NCBI GenBank assembly: GCA_963825135.1
Contig: CAWGRW010000009.1
Coordinates: 2,528,001-2,592,000 of the forward strand
Reading direction: 5' to 3'
DNA: 64,000 nt
Source of the DNA: an uncultured bacterium
GTDB lineage: Bacteria; Desulfobacterota_D; UBA1144; Nemesobacterales; UBA2774
The position numbers were made by a program, and so were the translations under genes. Position 1 is the stretch's first letter. Every line of letters begins with the position of its first letter. Below the pieces are notes generated by a model. The model was not told the DNA's origin. It worked only from the letters and a program-made list of their open reading frames with translations, and made no database searches. Below are positions 52,508 to 63,681 of the stretch, in pieces.

Positions 52508-52681
52508 ATGAATCTCCGTCGCGTTCCTTTCATAAAATAGGAACTCACGAAATTTTAACATATGACAATGTTCCGACGTTAACGGCTGAATAAAAAAAAG
52601 AAGGCCGTCGTCGCCTCCGGAAATAAAAAGTATTAAAAAAGTGAAATTAACATTTACAGAGTTTCGGAAAAAAACCGAAAT

Positions 52682-52821
52682 TGTCCGTTTTCAAACACAC
52701 CATACTGTCCGGAACGGAACAAATCGTCACTTTTTTCTTTTTAATACTCCAAACCGATATGAGAGTAACCGGCATTTCATTGGCGATATCGCGGATTCGT
52801 TATAGGTGGCACGGCGCTTGC
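52682..52821 (+). promoter_or_regulatory. Sigma-54 promoter with two upstream TGT-N10-ACA enhancer-like boxes
   Basis: TGGCACGGCGCTTGC at 52807-52821 matches the -24/-12 consensus; TGT-N10-ACA at 52682-52697 and 52706-52721. Confidence 0.75.
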
Positions 52822-52863
52822 CAATCACAACCGCAAAATCCCCGGACAAAAGAGGCACTCAAA

Positions 52864-53973
52864 ATGAATCGAAGAACCATTGCTGGTTTTATATGCGTTC
52901 TGCTTACATCTCTGCTCGTTATTATTCCTCTTTCCACTGATGAAGCTCTATCTTATCATCGCTCAAATACACACAGGCCGCCAAGTAGTCCAACTCCCAC
53001 GCCGGTGCCGACGCCCGTACCGACCCCCAAGCCGACGCCCGTACCCACACCGGTACCGACGCCGGCTCCAAAGCCCGTTACGACGATTATAAAGGCCGGA
53101 GACAAGGTTGTGGAACGCGGTCAGTCCATACAATCGGCCATCGGCGCTGCGTCAAGCGGACAGACCGTGTGGGTTAAATCCGGCACCTGGACCCTTAACG
53201 CACAGCTTACGATGAAATACGGGGTAAGCGTTAAAGCCTATCCGGGAATGGAGGCATACGATTGGGATACCGACACCATTAATCCGTCCCACCCGTACAT
53301 CATTCCGGGCGCCTGTAATTCATGCGGCATAAGGTGGGGGAAAAATCAGGGAAATAATGAGTTCTCGGGGTTTGAAGTTGCCGGAGGGTACGGCGGTATA
53401 GATATCCATGCCAATAACGTGATCGTGAGCGACAACTGGATTCACGATACCGACTATACGAGTATATTCATAGCGAGCTCGAGTAATATTCTGATCGAGC
53501 ACAATAAGACTGAGCGTGACGGACAGTACTGCTACGGATGGACGAATCCAAATGACGGCACCCTGATAAGCCCGCGTCACTGCCATTCCGTTTACTTGAG
53601 CAACATCCCCGGTTACTGCGGCATGACGAATGTTACGGTCAGGGAAAATTACCTGTCGGATTCGGGGGGCAGCGCGGTGAATTTTAACGGCGATGACTGC
53701 GCCAAAGCCGGCGGTCAGCTCATATCGAATACCCTGATCGAGCTCAATAAGATAGTGGATGTGAATTTAGGGCCTTCTCTCTGGCACGGCACCACGGGGA
53801 CCGTAATAAGGGGTAATAAAATCACGATCCAGCACCCGTATACGCCGCCTGGTTCTATTAACGATATGTCCCTCGGCCTGAAATGCGGGATCGCCGCCTG
53901 GGATGAAACCCCGGCAATGTCGGGCAATACCTTTGACCTCAGGGCCGATTATAAACAGACCTGTCTGTATTAA
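52864..53973 (+). CDS. Secreted right-handed beta-helix (pectin-lyase-like fold) protein with Pro/Thr linker
   Basis: Signal peptide, PTPV repeats (52991-53077), SIQSAI...VWVKSGT, repeated NV.V.DN.I strands. Confidence 0.75.
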   Translation: MNRRTIAGFICVLLTSLLVIIPLSTDEALSYHRSNTHRPPSSPTPTPVPTPVPTPKPTPVPTPVPTPAPKPVTTIIKAGDKVVERGQSIQSAIGAASSGQTVWVKSGTWTLNAQLTMKYGVSVKAYPGMEAYDWDTDTINPSHPYIIPGACNSCGIRWGKNQGNNEFSGFEVAGGYGGIDIHANNVIVSDNWIHDTDYTSIFIASSSNILIEHNKTERDGQYCYGWTNPNDGTLISPRHCHSVYLSNIPGYCGMTNVTVRENYLSDSGGSAVNFNGDDCAKAGGQLISNTLIELNKIVDVNLGPSLWHGTTGTVIRGNKITIQHPYTPPGSINDMSLGLKCGIAAWDETPAMSGNTFDLRADYKQTCLY

Positions 53974-54403: not shown

Positions 54404-54739
54404 ATGCCTAACAATCATGTGCAGCTCGATCGCGTTTTTTATGCCCTGTCGGACCCGACCCGTCGCGCCGTTTTGACACGGCTCAGCGACGGCCCCGCTC
54501 CCGTGAGCGAATTGGCGCGACCCTTCGACATGGCGCTGCCCTCATTCACCCAGCATTTGGGAGTTCTCGAGGAGTGCGGGCTGGTCCGCTCGCAAAAACG
54601 GGGACGGGTGCGTACCTATGTGTTGACGCCGGAACCGTTGAAAACAGCGGAACACTGGATCGAGAAGCGGCGCGTGCTTTGGGAGCTGCGCCTGGATCAA
54701 TTGGACAATTTCCTGATATCGTTAAAGGAGAAAAAGTGA
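54404..54739 (+). CDS. ArsR/SmtB family transcriptional regulator
   Basis: [14 protein letters not shown]...SELA.PF.M..PSFTQHL.VLE..GLV...KRGRVR. Confidence 0.92.
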
Positions 54740-55239
54740 TGACTCATACAAAATTCAAACCCGATCCCGGGCTCGATCTCGTATTGGAGCGCATCGTCGA
54801 TGTGCCGAGAGAGCTCGTCTGGAAGGCGTGGACGACACCGGAATACCTGATGAAATGGTTCACGCCCGCACCCTGGATGACGGTCGAATGCGAGATCGAT
54901 CTCCGCCCCGGCGGGCTATTCCGCACGGTTATGCGTTCGCCGGAGGGGAAAGATCATCCGAATACCGGCTGTTACCTCGAAGTCGTCGAGAACGAGAAGC
55001 TCGTCTGGACCGATGCGCTCGAAGGCGGCTACAGGCCTTCCCAGAAGCCGAGCGACTGCCTCGCAGGATTCTTCTTTACCGCGAAAATCATTCTGGAGCC
55101 GCATAAAGACGGGACGAAATACACAGTTATTGCCCTTCACAGCAATGAAGAAGGGCGCAGAAAACACGAAGAGATGGGATTTCACGACGGATGGGGCACA
55201 GCCCTCGATCAGCTAGTTGCCTTTGTAAAAACACTGTAG
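54739..55239 (+). CDS. SRPBCC/AHSA1 (CalC-like) domain protein
   Basis: [35 protein letters not shown]; coupled to the ArsR gene. Confidence 0.9.
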
Positions 55240-55370: not shown

Positions 55371-56939
55371 TTATAAATCATTTCCGGAATAAGACAAATT
55401 GAAACTTTTATTAATCAGGGGGAAATCGGGTACCACATTCCCCTTCCCCGCGTGACCCAATATGGTCCAGTTTATAAACGATGGGTCGCGCACGTCTACC
55501 CTGCTTATCTCACCGGCCGCATCCGTCGCTACAAAATAAACGATATCGCCCCGCCATCCTTCCGTCACTCCGACGCCGTAGCTGCTGCTCCTCAATACCA
55601 TTTTTTCGCCGGATTTTAGTTCGTTGTTCAAAGGAATGCTCCCGAGCGCCTGCTCTATAATATCCATGGAAGTATGCACTTCCTTGATACGCACGGACCA
55701 TCTGGCCCGCACATCCCCTTCTTCTTCCAGGACGATCTCAAATTTTAATTTGTCGTATGCCGCGTAGGGGTATTCAGCGCGCGCATCGTGCGCGATCCCG
55801 GTTGCCCTGGCGGCTACGCCGATAACACCGTGGTCGAGGGCTATCTGACGGTCGAGCTTGCCGGTGCCCGAAAGGCGGTTCAGGAGAGAGAAGCTGCTTT
55901 CGGCAATTTCAATCACTTCGTGAAAATCACGGTGTACTTTTTTTAGATCGCTTAATAGTCCACCGCTCATCTCGCTCGTGATATCCCGCGTCACCCCGCC
56001 GATCGTATTTATGCCCCGTAAGAAACGGTTTCCTGCAAGACGCTCACAGCATTGCATAATGATTTCGCGAAGACGCGCACCGTTACTGCCGCCGAAATTA
56101 TAGCCGGCGTCCAGCATAACGAGACCGATATCGCTCAAGTGGTTTGCCAGTCTCTCCAACTCGGAAAAAACAACTCTCAGATACTTTGCCCTTTCCGGAA
56201 TCTTAATGCCGGACAGGTTTTCCACGGCCTGACAAAATGCCAGCGAATGAGTGAACGAAGTGTCTCCCGAAACCCTCTCGGATAATCTGATCTTGTCTCC
56301 CATCGTTAAAACCTCGAAGAGTTTTTCGGCGCCTTTGTGTGTATATCCAAGCTTCGGCTCGAGCGACGCTATTTCCTCTCCGACGACGTTGAATCGGAAG
56401 TGCCCGGGTTCAATGATGCCGGCGTGCACGGGCCCTACGGGAATTTCATAAATTCCCATTCCTTCGACCTTGTGGAATTCATACGATGCGTGCGCCTGCG
56501 GCGGACGGTCCCGCCAGTTAAAATCTTTTCTCAGCGGGAAAACCGTATCAGGCCAATTTTCGTGAAGAATGATCGGCCGCGGATGGGGGTGCTTTGTCGG
56601 TTTTAAACCGAAAAAGGTCTCGATCTTCCTTTCGTAACCGGAAGCCTCGTGAATAGCTCTGGTGATTGAGGGAAAATTTCCATGGTCCGTGAGGGTTATG
56701 TAGGGGACGAGAAAAACATTCTCCTTCGGCACGCCAAACACATAATAGATCTTGAAACCTCCGTCTTCACTCCGTTCGTCCGCCGCGGTTATCGTTTTGA
56801 GCTGTAACGCGTGAGCGAAATAGAGCCGGTTGGCGATCTCCGGTATTTCATCAACAGGAACATTATAGGCAGCGACGTTGCCCTCTTTTCTCATCTCATA
56901 TTTAGCGGGAATATATTTTTCTATTATTTCTCGTTTCAT
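55371..56939 (-). CDS. Ehr/HyfG-like large subunit (NuoC-NuoD fusion) lacking NiFe-binding cysteines
   Basis: FPLRKD, VGPVHAGIIEPGHFRF, ERVSGD (replaces RxCGxC), EGWRG, KSFNLSYSGNDL (replaces DPCxxC). Confidence 0.9.
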   Translation of the reverse strand: MKREIIEKYIPAKYEMRKEGNVAAYNVPVDEIPEIANRLYFAHALQLKTITAADERSEDGGFKIYYVFGVPKENVFLVPYITLTDHGNFPSITRAIHEASGYERKIETFFGLKPTKHPHPRPIILHENWPDTVFPLRKDFNWRDRPPQAHASYEFHKVEGMGIYEIPVGPVHAGIIEPGHFRFNVVGEEIASLEPKLGYTHKGAEKLFEVLTMGDKIRLSERVSGDTSFTHSLAFCQAVENLSGIKIPERAKYLRVVFSELERLANHLSDIGLVMLDAGYNFGGSNGARLREIIMQCCERLAGNRFLRGINTIGGVTRDITSEMSGGLLSDLKKVHRDFHEVIEIAESSFSLLNRLSGTGKLDRQIALDHGVIGVAARATGIAHDARAEYPYAAYDKLKFEIVLEEEGDVRARWSVRIKEVHTSMDIIEQALGSIPLNNELKSGEKMVLRSSSYGVGVTEGWRGDIVYFVATDAAGEISRVDVRDPSFINWTILGHAGKGNVVPDFPLINKSFNLSYSGNDL

Positions 56940-56943
56940 GGTA

Positions 56944-58389
56944 TTAGTAATTTATTGTCGCTGAATGTAACAACGTCCGCATACCCTCCGGGATGAAAAT
57001 GCTGAAAATGATTAAAAGAGTGGCCAGAAGCATAATGGGGACGATTGTATCCAATCCGCTCTCGCCCTTTGCCATGGGTATGTCGCTGTTTCCAAACGTG
57101 ATCGAGACGACGTGCCGCAAAAAACCGACAAATACCAGGGCCAGCACCGATAAAGTAATGATCACGGTTGCCGGATGCGTATTAATGCCCGCCGACAATA
57201 TTGAAAATTCGGTTAAAAAAGTCCCGAACGGAGGAACGCCGGTGATCGCCAAAAATCCGATAAAAAACAGTATGCCGGTCACAGGCAGGACCGTAAGAAC
57301 GCCTTTCACATTTCTTATTTTTGTGGAACCGTATTTCACTAATATATTGCCCGCCGATAAGAATAGAACCGATTTTGTCAGCGCGTGGTAGATCATATGG
57401 AGCAGAGCCGCGAATGCCCCCGCGCCACCGAACCCGAACCCCAGGGCGACGATCCCCATGTGCTCAATGCTGGAATACGCCAGCAGCCGTTTATAGCTCT
57501 TTTGACTAAAGATGATAAAAGCCGCGACGGATATCGAGATGACGCCGAAAAATACGAGCAGCTCCCGGGAAAAATACGGGCCTATAGCTACATCGACAAC
57601 GGATTTGAACCGCAGAAGTGCGAGAAAAGCGACATTAAGCAATACGCCTGAAAGCAGGCTGCTGATCGGTGCCGGGGCTTTACTGTGGGCATCCGGCAGC
57701 CATGTATGCATGGGAACCAGACCGACTTTTGTGCCGTATCCGATTAAAATAAAAATGAATGCCATCTTGGCTATAAACGGATCAAGCGCTGAAGCATGGG
57801 ATAACATGTCGTGCCAACTGATCAATCCCGGAGAACCGGCATGTATGGACGGATAGAGGAAAAGGAAGGTGCCGAAAAATCCCAACAATAGTCCGACCGA
57901 ATTAATCATCAAATATTTCCAGGCTGCTTCAATCGCAGACGGCTTGTTGTAGAAGCTGATAAGGAACGCTGTGGAGAGCGTGGTCGCTTCAATCGCAATC
58001 CAGGTCAAAATGGGGCTCGTGGACATAACTGCAAAAAACATCGCCAGGAGGAATAAGTGCAACAGAATAAAATATTGCCGTACCCTGCTGAATCCTATGA
58101 TCCTTTTCGCCACCTCAAGTTTTAGATAGCCGGTCGAGTACCATGACGCCATGGCGCCTACGACTGCGACAAGCATGATTATGACCGCCCCCAGCGGGTC
58201 GACGAAGAAATAGCCGTTTAAGCGATATAAGCCGCTGCTCACGACCGAGGCGACCGTTACCAGCGTCGCCGCCAATTCCAGGAAAGAGGCGGAGACAGCG
58301 ATAAAGCTCAACACCCGCATATCTTTCTTCACAAAGAAAGATGCGACGGAGGCGATAATCGGTATGATGATAATTAAAAATAAGGCCAA
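56944..58389 (-). CDS. hyfF: HyfF-like antiporter-type membrane subunit
   Basis: EATTL, EAAWKY, GYGTKVGLVPMHTWLPDAHS, KRLLAYSSIEHMG. Confidence 0.88.
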   Translation of the reverse strand: MALFLIIIIPIIASVASFFVKKDMRVLSFIAVSASFLELAATLVTVASVVSSGLYRLNGYFFVDPLGAVIIMLVAVVGAMASWYSTGYLKLEVAKRIIGFSRVRQYFILLHLFLLAMFFAVMSTSPILTWIAIEATTLSTAFLISFYNKPSAIEAAWKYLMINSVGLLLGFFGTFLFLYPSIHAGSPGLISWHDMLSHASALDPFIAKMAFIFILIGYGTKVGLVPMHTWLPDAHSKAPAPISSLLSGVLLNVAFLALLRFKSVVDVAIGPYFSRELLVFFGVISISVAAFIIFSQKSYKRLLAYSSIEHMGIVALGFGFGGAGAFAALLHMIYHALTKSVLFLSAGNILVKYGSTKIRNVKGVLTVLPVTGILFFIGFLAITGVPPFGTFLTEFSILSAGINTHPATVIITLSVLALVFVGFLRHVVSITFGNSDIPMAKGESGLDTIVPIMLLATLLIIFSIFIPEGMRTLLHSATINY

Positions 58390-58393
58390 CGAA

Positions 58394-59053
58394 TTATTCC
58401 TCTTTTAAATGTTTTAGCACACTCACATTAAGCGAGCCGAAGTGCCGGTATATCATTGACGCAAAAACGGTCGCGATAACGACCCAGATAAAAATATCGA
58501 ACAGAATGCCCACTTGCAGCCCGGCAGTCGTCTCAAGCCCGGCCACGTACGCGAATGAAACGATGGCATTTTCCAATGACAAAATACCGACCATCTGGGA
58601 CAGTGCCCCTTTGCGGTTAATAATTAAAAAAATTGATATGAGCACCATCGCTATGGCGAGAGATAAAGCGTTTTCCTTGCCCGGAGCGAGAATAGTCAAC
58701 GGACCGAAAAAGTGCGAGTAGGAAAGCGCGGTTAATAACGCCAGGGCGACCAGCGTCATAGGAGTGTTCAAATAAGTGCTGACGGAAAATTGCAGCCGGT
58801 GTTTTTTAATGAGCCCCGAAAAGAAATACGGGACGATTATCACTTTGACCAAAAAAGTCGCCGCAGCCGCTATCACAAGCAGAAGTGAGTACTCAGTGAG
58901 GGATGAATTGAACAAAACGATAGCAATGATCAATGACTGTGCCGCATAAAGAAGTATTACCCCCGAATTTTTCTTGGCGATGTGCATAAAAACGACCGAT
59001 ACAAACAGCATCGTCTCAAGAAAAAACAATATTTGCGGTGTAATAGAAATCAT
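58394..59053 (-). CDS. hyfE: HyfE-like membrane subunit
   Basis: Multiple TM segments, VKVIIVP, SQMVGILSLENA, GILFD, C-terminal LKEE; operon position. Confidence 0.8.
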   Translation of the reverse strand: MISITPQILFFLETMLFVSVVFMHIAKKNSGVILLYAAQSLIIAIVLFNSSLTEYSLLLVIAAAATFLVKVIIVPYFFSGLIKKHRLQFSVSTYLNTPMTLVALALLTALSYSHFFGPLTILAPGKENALSLAIAMVLISIFLIINRKGALSQMVGILSLENAIVSFAYVAGLETTAGLQVGILFDIFIWVVIATVFASMIYRHFGSLNVSVLKHLKEE

Positions 59054-59057
59054 GGTT

Positions 59058-59984
59058 TTAGATAGTCAAACTCATAGCAATGATGCTTAAAATAAACGAT
59101 GTGAACAATAAATCCGGCAGTCTGAAAAACCTGAATTTGACGATAGTGGACTCCAGGACGGCAACGAATACGCTGAACGCAAGAATTTTTGCAAGAAACA
59201 AAATTAAGGCAAGCGGAACATCCCCGAGACGTCCCGATGACGACATCCCCCAGGGGAAGAATATATTTGCTCCCAATGCGAGGAAGATAAAAAACTTATT
59301 TGCCGCCGCCCATTCGATAAGCGCCAGTCTCTTTCCCGAATATTCCAGGACCATTGCTTCGTGGATCATGGTAAGCTCCAGGTGGGTAGCCGGATTATCG
59401 AAGGGGAAGCGCCCCGTTTCGGCAAGCATGGCGATTATAAACGCGGCGAGCGCGAGAGTTATCGGGGCAAAAGCGAAAAACGAAAACGAGGCGACAGCGC
59501 CGGAGATTGTAAAAAGATTCGTGGAATGAGCCGAGAACGCCGGGACGAGAATGGAGAACATCAAACCGCCCTCCGTTAAAGCGGCAACCGTCATTTCACG
59601 GCTTGATCCGAACCCCCCGAAAGCGCTTCCCACATCCATGCCGGCCAGGGCGAGAAAGAAAGTTCCAAGCGCAATCAGATATATTACGACCAGCAGGTCA
59701 CCGAGGACATTGATGGAAAAGATCGTGGTAAAGAGCGGAATGCTCGCTCCTATAATCACGGTGGTCGAAAAAATGAGATAGGGAGCGCATTTGAAAATCC
59801 AGGAAGCGTCCCCGCTTATCACCTCATCCTTATGGAGTAACTTCCACAAGTCCCTATACGGCTGAAATACGCTCGCGCCGACTCTGTTTTGGAATCTCGC
59901 TTTTATCTTTCTGACGACACCTATACACAGAGGCGACACGGCCGGCACGAGTGCTAATTGAATTGTCCAAATTATAATTGACAT
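59058..59984 (-). CDS. hyfC: HyfC/NuoH-like membrane subunit
   Basis: KIKARFQNRVG, QPYRDL.KL, GSSRE, AETGRFPFDNPATHLELTMIHEAMVLEYSG. Confidence 0.9.
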   Translation of the reverse strand: MSIIIWTIQLALVPAVSPLCIGVVRKIKARFQNRVGASVFQPYRDLWKLLHKDEVISGDASWIFKCAPYLIFSTTVIIGASIPLFTTIFSINVLGDLLVVIYLIALGTFFLALAGMDVGSAFGGFGSSREMTVAALTEGGLMFSILVPAFSAHSTNLFTISGAVASFSFFAFAPITLALAAFIIAMLAETGRFPFDNPATHLELTMIHEAMVLEYSGKRLALIEWAAANKFFIFLALGANIFFPWGMSSSGRLGDVPLALILFLAKILAFSVFVAVLESTIVKFRFFRLPDLLFTSFILSIIAMSLTI

Positions 59985-59991
59985 AGTATTT

Positions 59992-62037
59992 CTACATACC
60001 CGAAGCGAACAGCAGGGCAATGAGTATCGCCAATATGTACAGTACGTACATATTGATATTGCCGCTCTGGATTCTTTTCACGTACTCGGAAGCTTTGATG
60101 GTCAGCATATGCACCGGCTGATAAAAATACCTGTTGTAAATATCCTGAATCCCAAGTTCAATAGTGCTTGATTTTTGAAAATAACGCATATCCTCGTCCC
60201 GATACTCGATGCTCGTTTGTTTAGTCGGCTTGAGCGCCCCGCGGAAAATAGTAACGATAGAGTTGGAGAATCCCGTGGCTGTGATTTCCATTCTCGGGCT
60301 AAGAGTTGTTCCGCAATCCCATGTGCGGCCGATTTTCGTTTTTCTGTTGCGTGAGACGAGATACACGGCAAAAAACGTCAATGCCATGGTTACAATAAGA
60401 CTTGCCAGGATAAGCGGCATTGAAATTGAAGCGAAGCCGTTCCGCATTCCGGCCGTTTGGATGGTTGAAAAGAATGCCGGTTCGGAAGCATTAAAGGCGC
60501 TCAAATCGCTCACAACGCCTGATACTGCATTTGTGATACCGCCCGCCGTAAATCCTATGACCAGAGTAAGAGCCGCGAGAACGGCCATTCCGGCACGAAG
60601 CGCGAAACCCGACTCTCTTGCGCGCCGGACATTCTCACTCCTTGGTCTCGCCAGGAATGTAATTCCGAACGCTCTCACAAAACACATTGCCGCAAGCCCC
60701 CCCGTAAACGCAAGCGATCCCGCCGCCAGCACAAATACCCAGCGCACCGAGATATTCGATGCCATGATTCCGCTAAAAAGAGCCTGAAACGTCATCCATT
60801 CGCTGAAAAAACCGTTCATAGGAGGCAGCGCCGATATCGCCATCGAGCCGGCGAGAAAGAAAAGCGCAGTTTGCGGCATATATTTTATTAAGCCGCCGTA
60901 TTCTTCCATATTTCTGGTATGGGTTTGGGAAATAACGGAACCGGCGCCCAGGAATAATAATGCTTTGAATATCGCATGGTTGAGAGTATGAAAAAGCGCC
61001 GCTACCAGGCTAAGGACGGCCAGCGGCTTCATGTCCAGCGACCAAAACACAAGCGAGCTGCCGAGTCCCAGCAGAATGATCCCGATATTCTCGATGCTGC
61101 TGTAAGCCAGGAGTCTTTTGATATTGTATTCGGTGAGTGCATACAAAACCCCTAACAGCGATGATATAGCGCCCAGTATTAAAATAACGACTCCCCACCA
61201 GAGCGGCGCGTCCGGCAGCATGTCCATGAACATCCGGATAAACATATAGATGCCGGTCTTGATCATCACGCCCGACATCAGGGCGGAGACATGGGACGGG
61301 GCGGCGGGGTGAGCGTTAGGCAGCCAGATGTGAAAAGGGATTATGCCCGCTTTTGTTCCAAACCCTATAAGCGCAAGAATGAAAACCGTATCGGTTATGA
61401 GCGGCGGACTATTTCCGATAGTTTCTTTTATTACGCCAAAGTCCAAAGACCCGGTAGAACGGTACAGGAGTAAAAAAGCCAGCGTTATAAACGCCGTCCC
61501 GACGTGGGTCATAATGAAATAAAGCGATCCCGCTTGCACATTTTCTTTTTCCTTGTTTTCATAAATAACCAGGAAATACGACGCAAGTGACATTATTTCC
61601 CACACGATGAGAAAAAAAAGGGCATTGTGCGCGCTGACCACCATAACCATGCCGACCAGAAAAATATTATAAAAAAAGCCGAGCGCGCCGATGTTATACC
61701 TTTTGTAATAATGCTTTACATATCCCAATGCATAGATTGAAGCGAGTAAAGCGATGAGCGAAATAAGGAAGATGAAAAATGCGGATAATTTATCTACGCT
61801 GAAAGATAACGATAACAGAGGCAGCGTGGAGTCGATGTTAAAAGAAAATGTCGGCCCGACGATCAGCACCGACAGAGAGAACAATAATCCGACACAGGAT
61901 CCGAGAATCGCAAAAGAATTTCCCCACCAGTTTGCCAGGCGGTCATTTTTGCTCAAGGCCAAAGCCCCGACAGCCCCTGCTAACCATAATAGGAGTGACA
62001 GAAAGAATATATTCGATGAGATAAGCGTGTTAAACAT
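59992..62037 (-). CDS. hyfB: HyfB-like antiporter-type membrane subunit
   Basis: WEIMSL, GFGTKAG..PFHIWLP.AHPAAPSHVSALMSG, KRLLAYSSIEN, NHAIFK, WDCG. Confidence 0.9.
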   Translation of the reverse strand: MFNTLISSNIFFLSLLLWLAGAVGALALSKNDRLANWWGNSFAILGSCVGLLFSLSVLIVGPTFSFNIDSTLPLLSLSFSVDKLSAFFIFLISLIALLASIYALGYVKHYYKRYNIGALGFFYNIFLVGMVMVVSAHNALFFLIVWEIMSLASYFLVIYENKEKENVQAGSLYFIMTHVGTAFITLAFLLLYRSTGSLDFGVIKETIGNSPPLITDTVFILALIGFGTKAGIIPFHIWLPNAHPAAPSHVSALMSGVMIKTGIYMFIRMFMDMLPDAPLWWGVVILILGAISSLLGVLYALTEYNIKRLLAYSSIENIGIILLGLGSSLVFWSLDMKPLAVLSLVAALFHTLNHAIFKALLFLGAGSVISQTHTRNMEEYGGLIKYMPQTALFFLAGSMAISALPPMNGFFSEWMTFQALFSGIMASNISVRWVFVLAAGSLAFTGGLAAMCFVRAFGITFLARPRSENVRRARESGFALRAGMAVLAALTLVIGFTAGGITNAVSGVVSDLSAFNASEPAFFSTIQTAGMRNGFASISMPLILASLIVTMALTFFAVYLVSRNRKTKIGRTWDCGTTLSPRMEITATGFSNSIVTIFRGALKPTKQTSIEYRDEDMRYFQKSSTIELGIQDIYNRYFYQPVHMLTIKASEYVKRIQSGNINMYVLYILAILIALLFASGM

Positions 62038-62039
62038 AT

Positions 62040-62579
62040 TTATTGGGCGGCCTTGGCGCGGGAATCGAACATTTCAAGGATTTGCAGCAAGCTGCAAAGT
62101 ATTACTCTTGGAGACGGCGGGTCTCCGGGAATATTAAAATCTACAGGAATGACATTGTGCACTCCGTCCAAAACTCCGTAAGAACCTTTAAAAATGCCTC
62201 CGTCTATCGCGTCATCTCCGACTGCCACGACAATCTTCGGATCAGGAACGGCTTCGTATGTCCTTACCAGCGCTTCTTCCATGTTTCTGGTAACGGGGCC
62301 CGTAACCATCAGCATGTCCGCGTGCCTTGGCGAAGCTACAAAATGGATTCCGAATCTTTCAATGTCGTAATAAGCGTTGCCGAGCGCCGTAAGCTCCTGC
62401 TCGCATGCGTTGGTCGATCCGGCATCTACGGCCCGGATAGCGAGCGAGCCGTGAAATGACCGCCGTACTGCGGCTTCCAGCGTTTTCCCTATAATGTTAA
62501 TGTCCGCATCGCACCCGAGCGACCGAACGTCTATGACCGTCTTCGGTGTCGAAAAAATTTTGTAATAAAGTCTGAACAT
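62040..62579 (-). CDS. EhrS/HyfI/NuoB-like small subunit with three of four Fe-S cysteines substituted
   Basis: DAGSTNACEQE, SPRHADML.VTGPVT.NM, VGDDAIDGG, IPGDPPSP. Confidence 0.9.
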   Translation of the reverse strand: MFRLYYKIFSTPKTVIDVRSLGCDADINIIGKTLEAAVRRSFHGSLAIRAVDAGSTNACEQELTALGNAYYDIERFGIHFVASPRHADMLMVTGPVTRNMEEALVRTYEAVPDPKIVVAVGDDAIDGGIFKGSYGVLDGVHNVIPVDFNIPGDPPSPRVILCSLLQILEMFDSRAKAAQ

Positions 62580-62853
62580 TTTCTTACTTGATTAAATCAT
62601 CAGCGCCGACGTCAAAACGCTTTTGCGATTTGTGAAGGGTTTCAATAGTTGTATACGGCATAGTCTTCTGCAGGCTGTACCGTACTGGCGGATCAAATGC
62701 TTTCGTAAGAACGTTCATGGGTGTTAACGCGCGGTTTCCTGATGATTGTTCAGTAAATAAGGTAGTTGTCAAGAGAAACGAAGGAAAATTCACACCGGAA
62801 ACGGATATGCGCGCATGAAATAACCGTGAGCGAAACCGGCTCCCTGCTATTAC

Positions 62854-63681
62854 TCATACGGACGGAATTTGCGTCTGACGACGGAAGAGCCAGGCGGCTG
62901 TCGGCATAGCGGCGAGGGTTATTGCGACGCACCAGACGACCGAGAGCCATCCGGCGTTTCCTATAGGCGTCCCGACTAGCCAGGCGCGCATTGCCTGAAT
63001 CACTATGGTAAACGGCTGGTTCTCTGCGAAGACGCGTAGAGGGGCGGGCATGCCGTCCGTCGGGACGAAGGCGCTCGAAGCGAAGGTCAGGGGCATGATG
63101 ACGATGTAGCTCACCCACTGTGCCGCCTCAATGCTCTTCACGATAAGCCCGAGAATGGCGCAGAACCACGACATGGCGAACGTAAAGAGGAGCAGGAGAC
63201 CGAACACCGCGAGCCATTCGGCAGGCCCCGCCGTCGGACGGAAGCCGACCGCGAAGCCCGCTATGAGCATTATGAGACCCGAGATGGTGTTGCGGAAGAG
63301 GTCTGCGACAACATGACCCGTAAGGAGAGCGGAGCTGTTCATGGGGAGAGAGCGGAACCTGTCCACTATGCCGCGCTTGAGGTCGAGCACGATGTTGACC
63401 GTGGTGTTGCTCGAGCCGAACGCGAGGGTCTCGACGAGTATGCCTGCCAGAAGGAAATTGGGGTAAGAGGTGTCGCCCGTATCGATAGCGCCTCCGAAGA
63501 CGTAGCGGAACAGGATCAGAAACATGACGGGCATGAGGATGAGCGACAGCAGCTGGTCGAGGTTCCTGGTGATGTGCTTGATGCTGCGTTTGGTAAGCAC
63601 CCACGAATCGCTCAGAACCCAATAGATAGCCGGGCGGCGTTCGGGTTCTACCTTCGTAAGTATGGAGGAAATCCGGTCCAT
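62854..63681 (-). CDS. ABC-2 exporter permease (DrrB-like)
   Basis: FRYVFGGAI, GIVDRFRSLP, PLTFASSAFVP, FAENQP. Confidence 0.9.
   Translation of the reverse strand: MDRISSILTKVEPERRPAIYWVLSDSWVLTKRSIKHITRNLDQLLSLILMPVMFLILFRYVFGGAIDTGDTSYPNFLLAGILVETLAFGSSNTTVNIVLDLKRGIVDRFRSLPMNSSALLTGHVVADLFRNTISGLIMLIAGFAVGFRPTAGPAEWLAVFGLLLLFTFAMSWFCAILGLIVKSIEAAQWVSYIVIMPLTFASSAFVPTDGMPAPLRVFAENQPFTIVIQAMRAWLVGTPIGNAGWLSVVWCVAITLAAMPTAAWLFRRQTQIPSV

Follow-up and report, generated by a model that had tools for sequence, protein, structure and literature searches.

A conserved Ehr/Hyq-type operon without the canonical NiFe and [4Fe-4S] cysteine ligand sets

The operon described here belongs to the Ehr/Hyq branch of complex-I-like membrane complexes and has lost the canonical ligand sets of both redox cofactors, a loss shared by all sampled loci of a large clade that is under purifying selection. 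It is located in a 64,000-nt stretch of DNA (the window) from an uncultured bacterium. The preferred explanation, which has about an even chance of being correct and is drawn from sequence comparison, is that the operon encodes an FeS-less Ehr/Hyq member with no redox cofactor that would act as a redox-independent cation or proton translocator.

Gene assignment was performed with Pfam and NCBIfam profile searches. These agree with the original prediction of an intact six-gene operon: the minus strand of window positions 55371-62579 contains six intact, tandem open reading frames in the order S-B-C-E-F-L, with gaps of 2-4 nt except for a 29-nt overlap between B and C. The features of the locus are listed below.

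62580..62772, minus strand: promoter-like site (TTGACA-16-AACAAT at 62772-62745) and leader of ~165 nt
62040..62579, minus strand: small subunit S (EhrS/HyfI/NuoB-like), 179 aa; Oxidored_q6 PF01058, E 6.8e-26
59992..62037, minus strand: HyfB/NuoL-like antiporter-like subunit B, 681 aa; NF005086, hydrogenase 4 subunit B
59058..60020, minus strand: HyfC/NuoH-like subunit C, 320 aa; NADHdh PF00146, E 1.7e-46
58394..59053, minus strand: HyfE-like membrane subunit E, 219 aa; NF008556
56944..58389, minus strand: HyfF/NuoM-N-like antiporter-like subunit F, 481 aa; PF00361, E 3.3e-51; hydrogenase-4 subunit F
55371..56939, minus strand: large subunit L (fused NuoC-NuoD/HyfG-like), 522 aa; Complex1_30kDa PF00329 and Complex1_49kDa PF00346
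56268-56270, 56259-56261, 55392-55394 and 55383-55385, minus strand: S224, T227, S516 and G519 of L, the replacements of the NiFe cysteines

Subunit B scores above the NCBIfam cut-off for NF005086 (698.8 bits against 667), and subunit E scores under that for NF008556, the NCBIfam hydrogenase-4 membrane subunit (66 bits against 136). The TTG start of subunit C lies inside B, within the 29 shared nt, and an alternative in-frame ATG is present 12 codons downstream. An ABC-2 permease and a DrrA-like ATPase are encoded upstream of the operon, and ArsR and an AHSA1/SRPBCC protein downstream. Pfam annotation of the window upholds the earlier claim that no ferredoxin-like, maturase or electron-input gene adjoins the operon, and a NuoI/HyfH-like subunit was not found in the operon or window by Pfam or by homology search with E. 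coli Hyf. Alignable homology to genus relatives starts exactly at the -35-like hexamer, with identities of 0.29-0.38 upstream and 0.81-0.95 downstream of it, and the number of promoter-like sites returned by the consensus scan is not above that in shuffles. An Rfam search of the leader gave no family, and its fold has a z-score of -0.78.

The [4Fe-4S] ligand columns of the small subunit were located by aligning S with E. coli HyfI and 150 representatives at 50% identity, ~110 of which carry C,C,x,C,C at these columns. The window protein has T56, C59, D123 and D153 at the four ligand positions, encoded by ACC (62412-62414), TGC (62403-62405), GAC (62211-62213) and GAC (62121-62123), and contains the motifs GSTNACE, VGDDAIDGG and IPGDPP. 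The original prediction had read these codons correctly, the ACC and both GAC codons each being two substitutions from TGY. D122, the first D of GDDA, represents no ligand change, as many relatives that do have the Cys likewise carry D there (GDCA; 68/80 sister loci). Among the best 120 protein matches to S, GSTNACE is found in 105 and IPGDPP in 118. In a set of 80 species-level loci that form the clade, the canonical ligand set occurs in none and no locus has more than one Cys at the four positions, so the substitutions extend beyond this assembly. Because the ligand loss is common to the 80 loci and dN/dS is 0.06-0.18 for all six genes (calculated against four genus relatives), assembly error is ruled out. 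The same values provide the purifying selection that had been named beforehand as a check.

The character of the former cluster pocket is indicated by which residues are retained across the 80 loci. D122 (77), D123 (74) and D153 (77) are near-constant; position 56 is T in 40, D in 32 and S in 8; and position 59 is Cys in 63 but E, A or P in 17. Given this variability at positions 56 and 59, the Cys/Asp/Asp metal site of the original prediction is not supported; the replacement of Cys59 makes a defined site of this kind unlikely, and judged from these residue patterns a carboxylate-rich pocket would be the better fit. The predicted model of S has the NuoB fold (pLDDT 87), with HycG (7z0s_G) and MbhJ (6cfw_J) as its best matches, and the region of the former cluster pocket is modelled at pLDDT 85-90. 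A search of S and L for an alternative conserved Cys/His set returned no second set, the only conserved residues of this kind being C59 of S and C236 of L (55/59). Together these two cysteines leave some chance that part of the clade has an atypical metal site.

In the large subunit, alignment with E. coli HyfG places C243, C246, C517 and C520 at S224, T227, S516 and G519 of L. All four NiFe cysteines are therefore gone, which bears out the reported loss of both CxxC motifs. Conserved polar residues persist at the old NiFe site (SGD[TS]S and NLSYSGNDL), and the C-terminal DFPLINKSFNLSYSGNDL is nearly invariant. When aligned with the host's own NuoD, L carries G and I at the positions that we take to be the quinone-headgroup Tyr and His.

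The membrane subunits retain the residues associated with ion translocation, which were placed by the numbering of E. coli NuoL/M/N and confirmed on their sequences. In subunit B, E147, K229, K260, H350, H354, K358 and E413 are invariant in 61/61 family members. Subunit F has E134 and K221 in 54/54 members, with position 394 being E in 32 and K in 22. The MrpA/MrpD-type set of TM5 Glu, TM7 Lys and TM12 Lys/Glu is thus found in the operon's antiporter-like subunits. Subunit C has 25 charged residues that are at least 97% conserved (59 sequences), and K70 and E161 are the only invariant charged residues of subunit E. S is the most conserved of all subunits, with 0.28 of its columns at least 97% identical versus 0.05-0.23 in the other five.

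The order S-B-C-E-F-L is found in 62/80 loci, the other 18 run off a contig edge within the cluster, and no other order occurs. Flanking genes differ between the loci, and no redox partner is nearby. In 16/80 loci, although not in the window, the four ORFs closest to the cluster include F-ATPase genes, and in one locus (L061) the cluster sits between atpG and atpD. CPR names are attached to 39/80 loci; respiring bacteria with a normal complex I also keep the operon, sometimes in several copies. The host itself is a respiring, non-CPR bacterium (genome 3.1 Mb, 94% complete) with homologues of all 14 complex I subunits elsewhere in the genome, including a normal four-Cys NuoB, and three CPA-type Na+/H+ exchangers. 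Genome-wide searches of this 94%-complete assembly did not find HypD (PF01924, the sole Hyp family searched; the control search matched 4/14 genomes), MrpF (PF04066, the only Mrp small subunit searched) or Pro_CA_2, which is also absent from the window. Within the host's genus the operon is patchy, and it is nested among CPR copies; in the host it is probably an accessory unit obtained by lateral acquisition.

The mechanism proposed for the translocator is argued from the missing cofactor ligands and the pattern of conservation. A six-subunit complex-I-like membrane complex descended from group-4 [NiFe] hydrogenases would have lost the NiFe site first, a state common to Hyq/Ehr, and then the cysteines of the small subunit that bind its one [4Fe-4S] cluster. 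A mechanism with no cofactor and no redox chemistry is preferred because no known electron route remains. The original prediction had offered either a new metal site or no redox cofactor; the latter option, with ion flux independent of redox chemistry, is the better one, whereas the defined metal site is not supported, and no result obtained here relates to the fluoride or acid tolerance that the prediction had named for assay. The most likely form would be a secondary cation/proton antiporter or ion-gradient converter resembling Mrp, which works without redox chemistry and without a peripheral cap. The conserved small-large subunit cap may have been retained as a cytoplasmic vestibule or coupling gate, and the former cluster pocket may have become a carboxylate cluster (D122, D123, D153 and often D56, plus E60 and E62) that could bind a cation or relay protons. 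Several observations count against the translocator: Mrp-specific small subunits are missing, the host already possesses three exchangers of the CPA type, and adjacency to ATP synthase genes is limited to the 16 loci noted above. Moreover, whereas Mrp has no cap, the cap is the most conserved part here; it may therefore do more than plug the complex, for instance bind a substrate or a metal. It is possible, though doubtful, that the cap is a working non-redox active site or an ion-sensing gate, and that binding or chemistry in the carboxylate pocket would drive or gate the coupling machinery; in some lineages such a cap could act with a carbonic-anhydrase-like partner or ATP synthase.

Other explanations assign a different role to the same residues. 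A new metal centre in the old cluster pocket (mononuclear Fe, Zn or Mn, or an unusual Asp-ligated Fe-S centre), with redox or metal catalysis at the small-large interface driving pumping, is unlikely. The three near-constant aspartates, the frequent Cys59, the well-modelled pocket, the high conservation of S relative to the other subunits and the polar residues that persist in L would all suit such a centre, but positions 56 and 59 vary. Sister lineages carry S/N-E-D-G-D, and therefore no single ligand set extends beyond two or three Asp; in addition, no electron donor or acceptor module is nearby. We know of no Fe-S cluster held by one Cys or fewer. Coupling of ion flux to a non-redox reaction with a soluble partner, for example vectorial CO2 hydration or bicarbonate handling as in DAB or cyanobacterial NDH-1MS, is more unlikely still. 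It is suggested by a gene for a putative carbonic anhydrase (Pro_CA_2) adjoining the cluster in 2/80 loci (L023 and L044), by SulP-family transporters adjoining two others (L015 and L052) and by a family with invariant C-x-D, H, H-x-P-C-G and H-x-D that adjoins five (L040, L045, L072, L080 and L082) and whose nearest Atlas cluster, at a score of 0.94, has Pro_CA_2 in 15% of its members. However, hhalign comparison of this family with the Pro_CA_2 protein of L023 indicates no relation (probability 0.3), a Pfam search of the family gave no match, such neighbours occur in at most 9/80 loci, and the host genome and window yielded no Pro_CA_2 gene.

It is very improbable that the operon encodes a classical Ehr/Hyq-type oxidoreductase passing electrons from an unlinked partner to quinone or protons. 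The six-subunit composition is the same as that given for Hyq/Ehr in the available portions of the sources (PMC7894505, PMC3357923), and quinone-based respiration, with genes for complex I, is present in the host. The cluster ligand set is nevertheless missing from S, as is a NuoI/HyfH-like subunit from the operon and window, L has G and I in place of the presumed quinone-binding residues, and 39 of the 80 loci, close to half, come from CPR-named genomes. A hydrogenase operon that is decaying or no longer functional would account for the disappearance of both catalytic cofactor sites, but this is scarcely credible given six intact frames, dN/dS values that contradict decay, a gene order fixed in 62/62 complete loci and key residues that are invariant across phyla.

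How energy is transferred from the small-large interface to distant ion channels in complex I and its hydrogenase relatives is still debated. In this clade the redox centres are lost, yet strong selection across hundreds of genomes has preserved the interface together with the NuoH-like channel and the antiporter-like subunits. If active, the complex would present ion movement and coupling free of electron transfer, and would offer a simple six-subunit system for studying the role of the cap. Should the cap be a non-redox active site or gate, this would be the first complex-I-type machine not run by redox chemistry. The operon is relevant, too, to the energetics of CPR bacteria, which are without a respiratory chain and often carry it beside or inside ATP synthase genes. 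The window adds that the FeS-less operon also occurs in respiring bacteria owning a normal complex I.

Among known systems, E. coli Hyf and formate hydrogenlyase (PDB 7Z0S) provide the best named homologues, with identities of 39% to HyfB, 34% to HyfC, 26% to HyfE (tblastn), 42% to HyfF, 32% to HyfG and 43% to HyfI, and the model of S matches HycG. Unlike these enzymes, the window operon has no NiFe cysteines, no FeS cysteine set, and no HyfA, HyfD, HyfH or HyfJ; in the absence of the four NiFe cysteines, and of HypD from the genome, it falls outside the group 4 [NiFe] hydrogenases. It resembles complex I in its NuoB-, NuoC/D-, NuoH-, NuoL- and NuoM/N-like subunits and NuoB fold, but is without the N2 ligand set, the N/Q module partners and separate NuoA, NuoI, NuoJ and NuoK. 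The operon shares with Mrp a pair of PF00361 antiporter-like subunits in which the Glu/Lys set is complete. This likeness is one of possible working, not of membership, since NuoH-, NuoB- and NuoD-like subunits do not occur in Mrp and Pfam identifies no MrpB, C, E, F or G in the operon. Unlike DAB and NDH-1MS, the window encodes no carbonic-anhydrase-like partner.

The nearest Cys-bearing relatives are alphaproteobacterial Hyq/Ehr operons, represented by a sister set of 80 loci (Bradyrhizobium, Methylocapsa, Sphingobium and others) that was linked to hyq by gene order, taxa and published residue pattern. These loci have the same six subunit types, and a HyfA/HyfH-like ferredoxin subunit sought in them gave no match. 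Their large subunit likewise lacks both CxxC motifs, with S,S,S,G in 72-73/74 loci, so that the replacements in the two groups are alike (S, S/T, S, G). The groups differ in the small subunit, which has four cluster cysteines in 80/80 sister loci and 0/80 loci of the window clade, and in gene order, which is B-C-E-F-L-S in Hyq/Ehr. A long branch lies between them, and identity to the window operon is only 53-69% in S and 21-47% in the remaining five subunits.

According to the available portions of the published accounts, the HyqG/HyqI residue pattern of Azorhizobium caulinodans hyqRBCEFGI agrees with that of the sister loci, and HyqI has four Cys for an N2-type [4Fe-4S] cluster (PMC3357923). 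Genetic evidence of H2 recycling is claimed there for Hyq despite the absence of NiFe cysteines (PMC2650096, PMC3357923), and caution is therefore appropriate in reading function from ligands alone. The Geobacter sulfurreducens Ehr (GSU0739-45), compared here by its described subunits only, comprises a NuoL-like EhrA, a HyfE-like EhrC, EhrL and EhrS and is abundant in formate-grown cells, as stated in the accessible text (PMC7894505). Jaffe et al. (2020) reported monophyletic CPR Ehr large subunits without metal-binding Cys; in the part of that paper available, small subunits are treated for group 3b only and ligand loss in the Ehr small subunit is not discussed (PMC7304191). That clade is likened to the present one by its description and by the CPR names in the set, the window genome itself being non-CPR. 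In the searchable literature, no account was found of a small subunit of this kind that has lost its cluster ligands. The term 'undescribed system' was nonetheless too strong, as the operon represents a derived offshoot of the established Ehr/Hyq group and its CPR branch is known from the large subunit (PMC7304191, as far as available). A four-Cys small subunit is not part of the original Ehr definition, and the operon is therefore filed as a variant within Ehr. Because sister Hyq/Ehr complexes without NiFe cysteines keep the four cluster cysteines, the clade is placed as a further-derived, FeS-less Ehr, and the successive steps of loss are still visible in extant relatives: from Hyf, through Hyq/Ehr without NiFe, to the window clade with neither NiFe nor FeS.

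The operon comprises six open reading frames arranged head to tail on the minus strand of the window (55371-62579), with junctions of 2-4 nt except at B/C, where the frames overlap by 29 nt.

Operon subunits and immediate surroundings
62040-62579, minus strand: S, small subunit, 179 aa, NuoB / hydrogenase small subunit family (PF01058)
59992-62037, minus strand: B, HyfB-like, 681 aa, hydrogenase-4 subunit B (698.8 bits, cut-off 667)
59058-60020, minus strand: C, HyfC-like, 320 aa, NuoH family
58394-59053, minus strand: E, HyfE-like, 219 aa, weak HyfE match (66 bits, under its cut-off)
56944-58389, minus strand: F, HyfF-like, 481 aa, hydrogenase-4 subunit F
55371-56939, minus strand: L, large subunit, 522 aa, fused 30-kDa (NuoC) and 49-kDa (NuoD/HyfG) domains
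54404-55239, plus strand: ArsR-family regulator and AHSA1/SRPBCC protein, downstream of the operon and convergent with it
Upstream of the operon, same strand: ABC-2 permease and DrrA-like ATPase

Identities to the E. coli K-12 Hyf proteins are 39% (HyfB), 34% (HyfC), 26% (HyfE), 42% (HyfF), 32% (HyfG) and 43% (HyfI). Of the other E. coli K-12 Hyf proteins, HyfA and HyfJ had no match anywhere in the host genome, and the sole match to HyfH was the NuoI locus of complex I. A 430-aa protein (52681-53973, plus strand), flanked by the ArsR pair and RNase PH, has a signal-like N-terminus, a Pro/Thr-rich linker (PTPVPTP) and a right-handed beta-helix domain.

The operon encodes a conserved, intact Ehr/Hyq-type complex without the canonical ligand set for either cofactor. 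The S motifs read GSTNACE, VGDDAIDGG and IPGDPP, with ACC (62412-62414), TGC (62403-62405), GAC (62211-62213) and GAC (62121-62123) at the ligand positions; the codons named in the original prediction match exactly. S was aligned with E. coli HyfI and with 150 representatives, the best of 5851 matches (E<=0.001) in a database of 1.84 billion proteins. The four cluster-ligand columns are occupied by T56, C59, D123 and D153, and about 110 of the 150 representatives have C,C,x,C,C at the ligand columns. D122 does not count as a ligand change, since Cys-bearing relatives often read GDCA. In L, residues S224, T227, S516 and G519 align with the NiFe cysteines C243, C246, C517 and C520 of HyfG. The predicted loss of both the NiFe and the [4Fe-4S] ligand sets is thus borne out in full by the alignments of S and L. 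Alignment with the host's own NuoD places G and I of L at the residues that we take to be the quinone-binding Tyr and His. Neither S nor L has a second conserved set of Cys/His residues.

A word-indexed protein search returned at least 8000 matches, and among the best 120 of these (69-100% identity) GSTNACE is kept in 105 and IPGDPP in 118. When each species was represented by a single genome, 173 loci were found to encode a relative, and 80 of these were kept for counts. Across these, position 56 is T in 40, D in 32 and S in 8; position 59 is C in 63, E in 8, A in 8 and P in 1; position 122 is D in 77 and N in 3; position 123 is D in 74 and G in 6; and position 153 is D in 77 and N in 3. Every locus has at most one Cys across the four ligand positions, so that the substitutions are not confined to this assembly (0/80 with more). 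At 62 loci the full set of six genes is present, arranged S-B-C-E-F-L; the remaining 18 end at a contig edge within the cluster, with an alternative order in none. Compared with four relatives of the same genus, each of the six genes has a dN/dS of 0.06-0.18, indicating purifying selection. As had been proposed from the codons, the altered ligand positions are neither sequencing error nor decay. The share of near-invariant columns is highest in S (0.28, versus 0.05-0.23 in the other subunits). The S family model (mean pLDDT 87, pTM 0.83) finds its best structural matches in HycG of formate hydrogenlyase (7z0s_G), MbhJ (6cfw_J; rmsd 2.0 over 137 columns) and the PSST/NuoB chains of complex I.

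The closest Cys-bearing small subunits are 54-60% identical to S and led to 80 sister loci with gene order B-C-E-F-L-S, mostly from Alphaproteobacteria (Bradyrhizobium, Methylocapsa, Sphingobium, Xanthobacteraceae and others). In 72-73 of 74 sequences the large subunit of these loci carries S,S,S,G in place of the NiFe cysteines, and all four cluster Cys are present in 80/80 small subunits. In the portions of the literature available, the same residue pattern is published for Azorhizobium hyqRBCEFGI, where HyqG is without both CxxC motifs and HyqI retains Cys55, Cys58, Cys112 and Cys152 (PMC3357923; the operon is also treated in PMC2650096), and the same subunit composition is named for Geobacter Ehr (PMC7894505). 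Because the large subunits of both groups carry the same replacements, loss of the NiFe site came first and loss of the cluster ligands followed in the window's clade. In a small-subunit tree of 150 rows (quick IQ-TREE search), 24 Cys-less rows including the window's family are set apart by a branch with SH-aLRT 94 and are nested among Cys-bearing rows of the GDCA type. Further Cys-less rows are placed elsewhere, which implies more than one ligand loss in the wider family; one Cys-less S cluster is from Chloroflexota. At a locus from a Lentisphaerae MAG (L012:3567-17996), a FeS-less S-B-C-E-F-L cluster (S without canonical [4Fe-4S] ligands) lies inside a second, classical Ehr-type cluster, with B'-C'-E'-F'-L' upstream (L' without NiFe CxxC motifs) and, directly downstream, a small subunit that keeps all four cluster Cys and is fused to a 2x[4Fe-4S] ferredoxin domain. 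The FeS-less and classical types thus coexist in one genome.

A FastTree of concatenated S, C, F and L (52 rows, 1497 columns, rooted on six Hyq-type loci) groups the window with four genus-level loci, followed by copies from Lentisphaerota, Uhrbacteria and Magasanikbacteria. CPR and non-CPR labels are interleaved, and the starred branches require at least nine changes. A search with S (E<=1e-20) detected the operon in 4 of the 10 host-genus species and in 0 of 15 other genomes of the host family; two weaker matches, from outside that family, are NuoB-type proteins of another kind. Relative to the window, the operon in genus relatives lies on the opposite side of the ArsR-AHSA1 pair, which is there upstream and divergent (L003:8559-9406, for example); the pair is possibly an operon regulator or merely a travelling neighbour. 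An accessory unit that moves laterally is suggested by the patchy distribution, the altered position and the placement within CPR copies. GC content was considered as a sign of transfer (operon 0.487, genome 0.532), but with a GC3 of 0.54-0.60 it is too weak. One genus relative (G009) carries three operon copies (L004, L006 and L007) with 91-92% small-subunit identity, each near the same MFS transporter and near ArsR/AHSA1 genes; these represent either a segmental triplication or mixed strains (bin contamination 7%).

The host genome (3.13 Mb, 17 contigs, 94% complete) has a Dadabacteria MAG as its closest named relative. Each of the 14 complex I subunits has a homologue elsewhere in this genome, and the NuoB among them has normal cysteines. 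On contig C9 the complex I genes occupy at least eight separate loci instead of a single nuo operon: nuoABCD at ~847 kb, nuoN at 854 kb, nuoM at 302 kb, nuoJKL at 1338 kb, nuoGH at 1527 kb, nuoI at 1076 kb, nuoF at 409 kb and nuoE at 546 kb. HypD had no match in the host genome.

The leader upstream of S is conserved from a -35-like box to the start codon (window 62580-62853, compared with the upstream regions of the genus-level loci L003-L007). Homology to the genus relatives starts exactly at the -35-like TTGACA, 193 nt 5' of the start codon, with identity rising from 0.29-0.38 on its 5' side to 0.81-0.95 beyond it; the window leader has a 139-nt deletion. Among the upstream regions searched with nhmmer, only the five genus-level loci match, and the one match in the host genome is the leader itself. 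A known RNA or riboswitch was rejected, as the whole window has no Rfam match at gathering score and 62400-63000 has chance-level matches only; the fold z-score of -0.78 likewise gave no stable fold. An upstream ORF (69 aa in the window, 105-110 aa in relatives) lacks any Pfam match at E<=1, is disrupted in frame by single-base indels and the 139-nt deletion, and is probably non-coding.

The membrane subunits retain the residues expected of an ion-translocating machine. In B, residues E147, K229, K260, H350, H354, K358 and E413 are invariant in 61/61 sequences and align with key Glu, Lys and His residues of E. coli NuoL and NuoM, whose numbering agrees with their database sequences. In F, E134 and K221 are invariant in 54/54, and position 394 is E or K. 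Charged residues conserved at >=97% number 25 in the NuoH-like subunit C and 43 in L. The host genome has three CPA-type exchangers and no match to MrpF.

From these residue patterns we infer a complex without a redox centre: the single remaining Cys of S is dispensable in 17 of the 80 loci, no electron wire or partner is encoded, and every known Fe-S cluster has, to our knowledge, more than one Cys ligand. With the ion-translocating residues intact, the most economical function would be redox-independent ion movement, for example Mrp-like cation/proton exchange, in which the cap (the small-large subunit pair) may be retained as a vestibule or gate with a carboxylate pocket at the former cluster site; we give this reading about an even chance. 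What calls most for caution is the cap: no other part is as conserved, and a plain antiporter would not need it. A second caution about the ion-movement reading lies in the H2-linked phenotypes claimed for Hyq, in the text available, despite absent NiFe cysteines (PMC2650096, PMC3357923). A new metal site could make use of the conserved Asp residues and is unlikely, given the replacements at position 59. Decay, suggested by the lost ligands themselves, is scarcely credible alongside purifying selection in all six genes. A classical redox function is very improbable with at most one ligand-position Cys per locus.

Coupling to a non-redox reaction (CO2 hydration, for instance) draws on the gene neighbours, which differ from locus to locus. 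A Pro_CA_2 gene adjoins the cluster at 2/80 loci, a SulP transporter at 2/80 and a Na+/H+ exchanger at 1/80. A small Cys/His/Asp family adjoins it at 5/80 (L040:7480-8196, L045:9266-9859, L072:17511-18095, L080:8426-9169 and L082:9189-9797). Its members have ~200 aa, invariant C-x-D, H, H, H-x-P-C-G and H-x-D and no Pfam match, in a pattern that we take to resemble a beta-carbonic-anhydrase-type zinc site. Kinship with Pro_CA_2 is supported neither by hhalign (probability 0.3) nor by Pfam, leaving as the lead the nearest Atlas protein cluster, in which 15% of members carry Pro_CA_2. F-type ATPase genes are within the four nearest ORFs at 16/80 loci; at L061 the cluster is flanked by atpG and atpD, and at L072 the Cys/His/Asp gene lies between the cluster and atpC. 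None of these five kinds of neighbour occurs within the window, Pro_CA_2 has no match in the host genome, and such coupling is quite unlikely. A looser pattern search found five ATP synthase c-subunit ORFs (L013, L045, L061, L065 and L080) where a stricter pattern gave none; all have Glu then Ala and no Ser/Thr. Against what we assume to be the Na+ motif they look H+-type, a weak pointer to the coupling ion.

Ehr complexes, their NiFe loss and a CPR clade of Ehr large subunits are known, and Ehr function is called unknown throughout the available text of these reports (PMC7304191, PMC6349859, PMC10284858, 10.1101/765248, PMC4758237); the small-subunit statements in the accessible part of PMC7304191 concern group 3b only. 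A full-text literature search, which lay outside the founding Ehr papers and the supplements of Jaffe et al., returned no report of small-subunit cluster-ligand loss or a cofactor-free Ehr. To the known systems the window adds a non-CPR, respiring host, a comparison with the Hyq sister family that orders the NiFe and cluster-ligand losses, the variability of the retained S Cys and a pattern of transfer.
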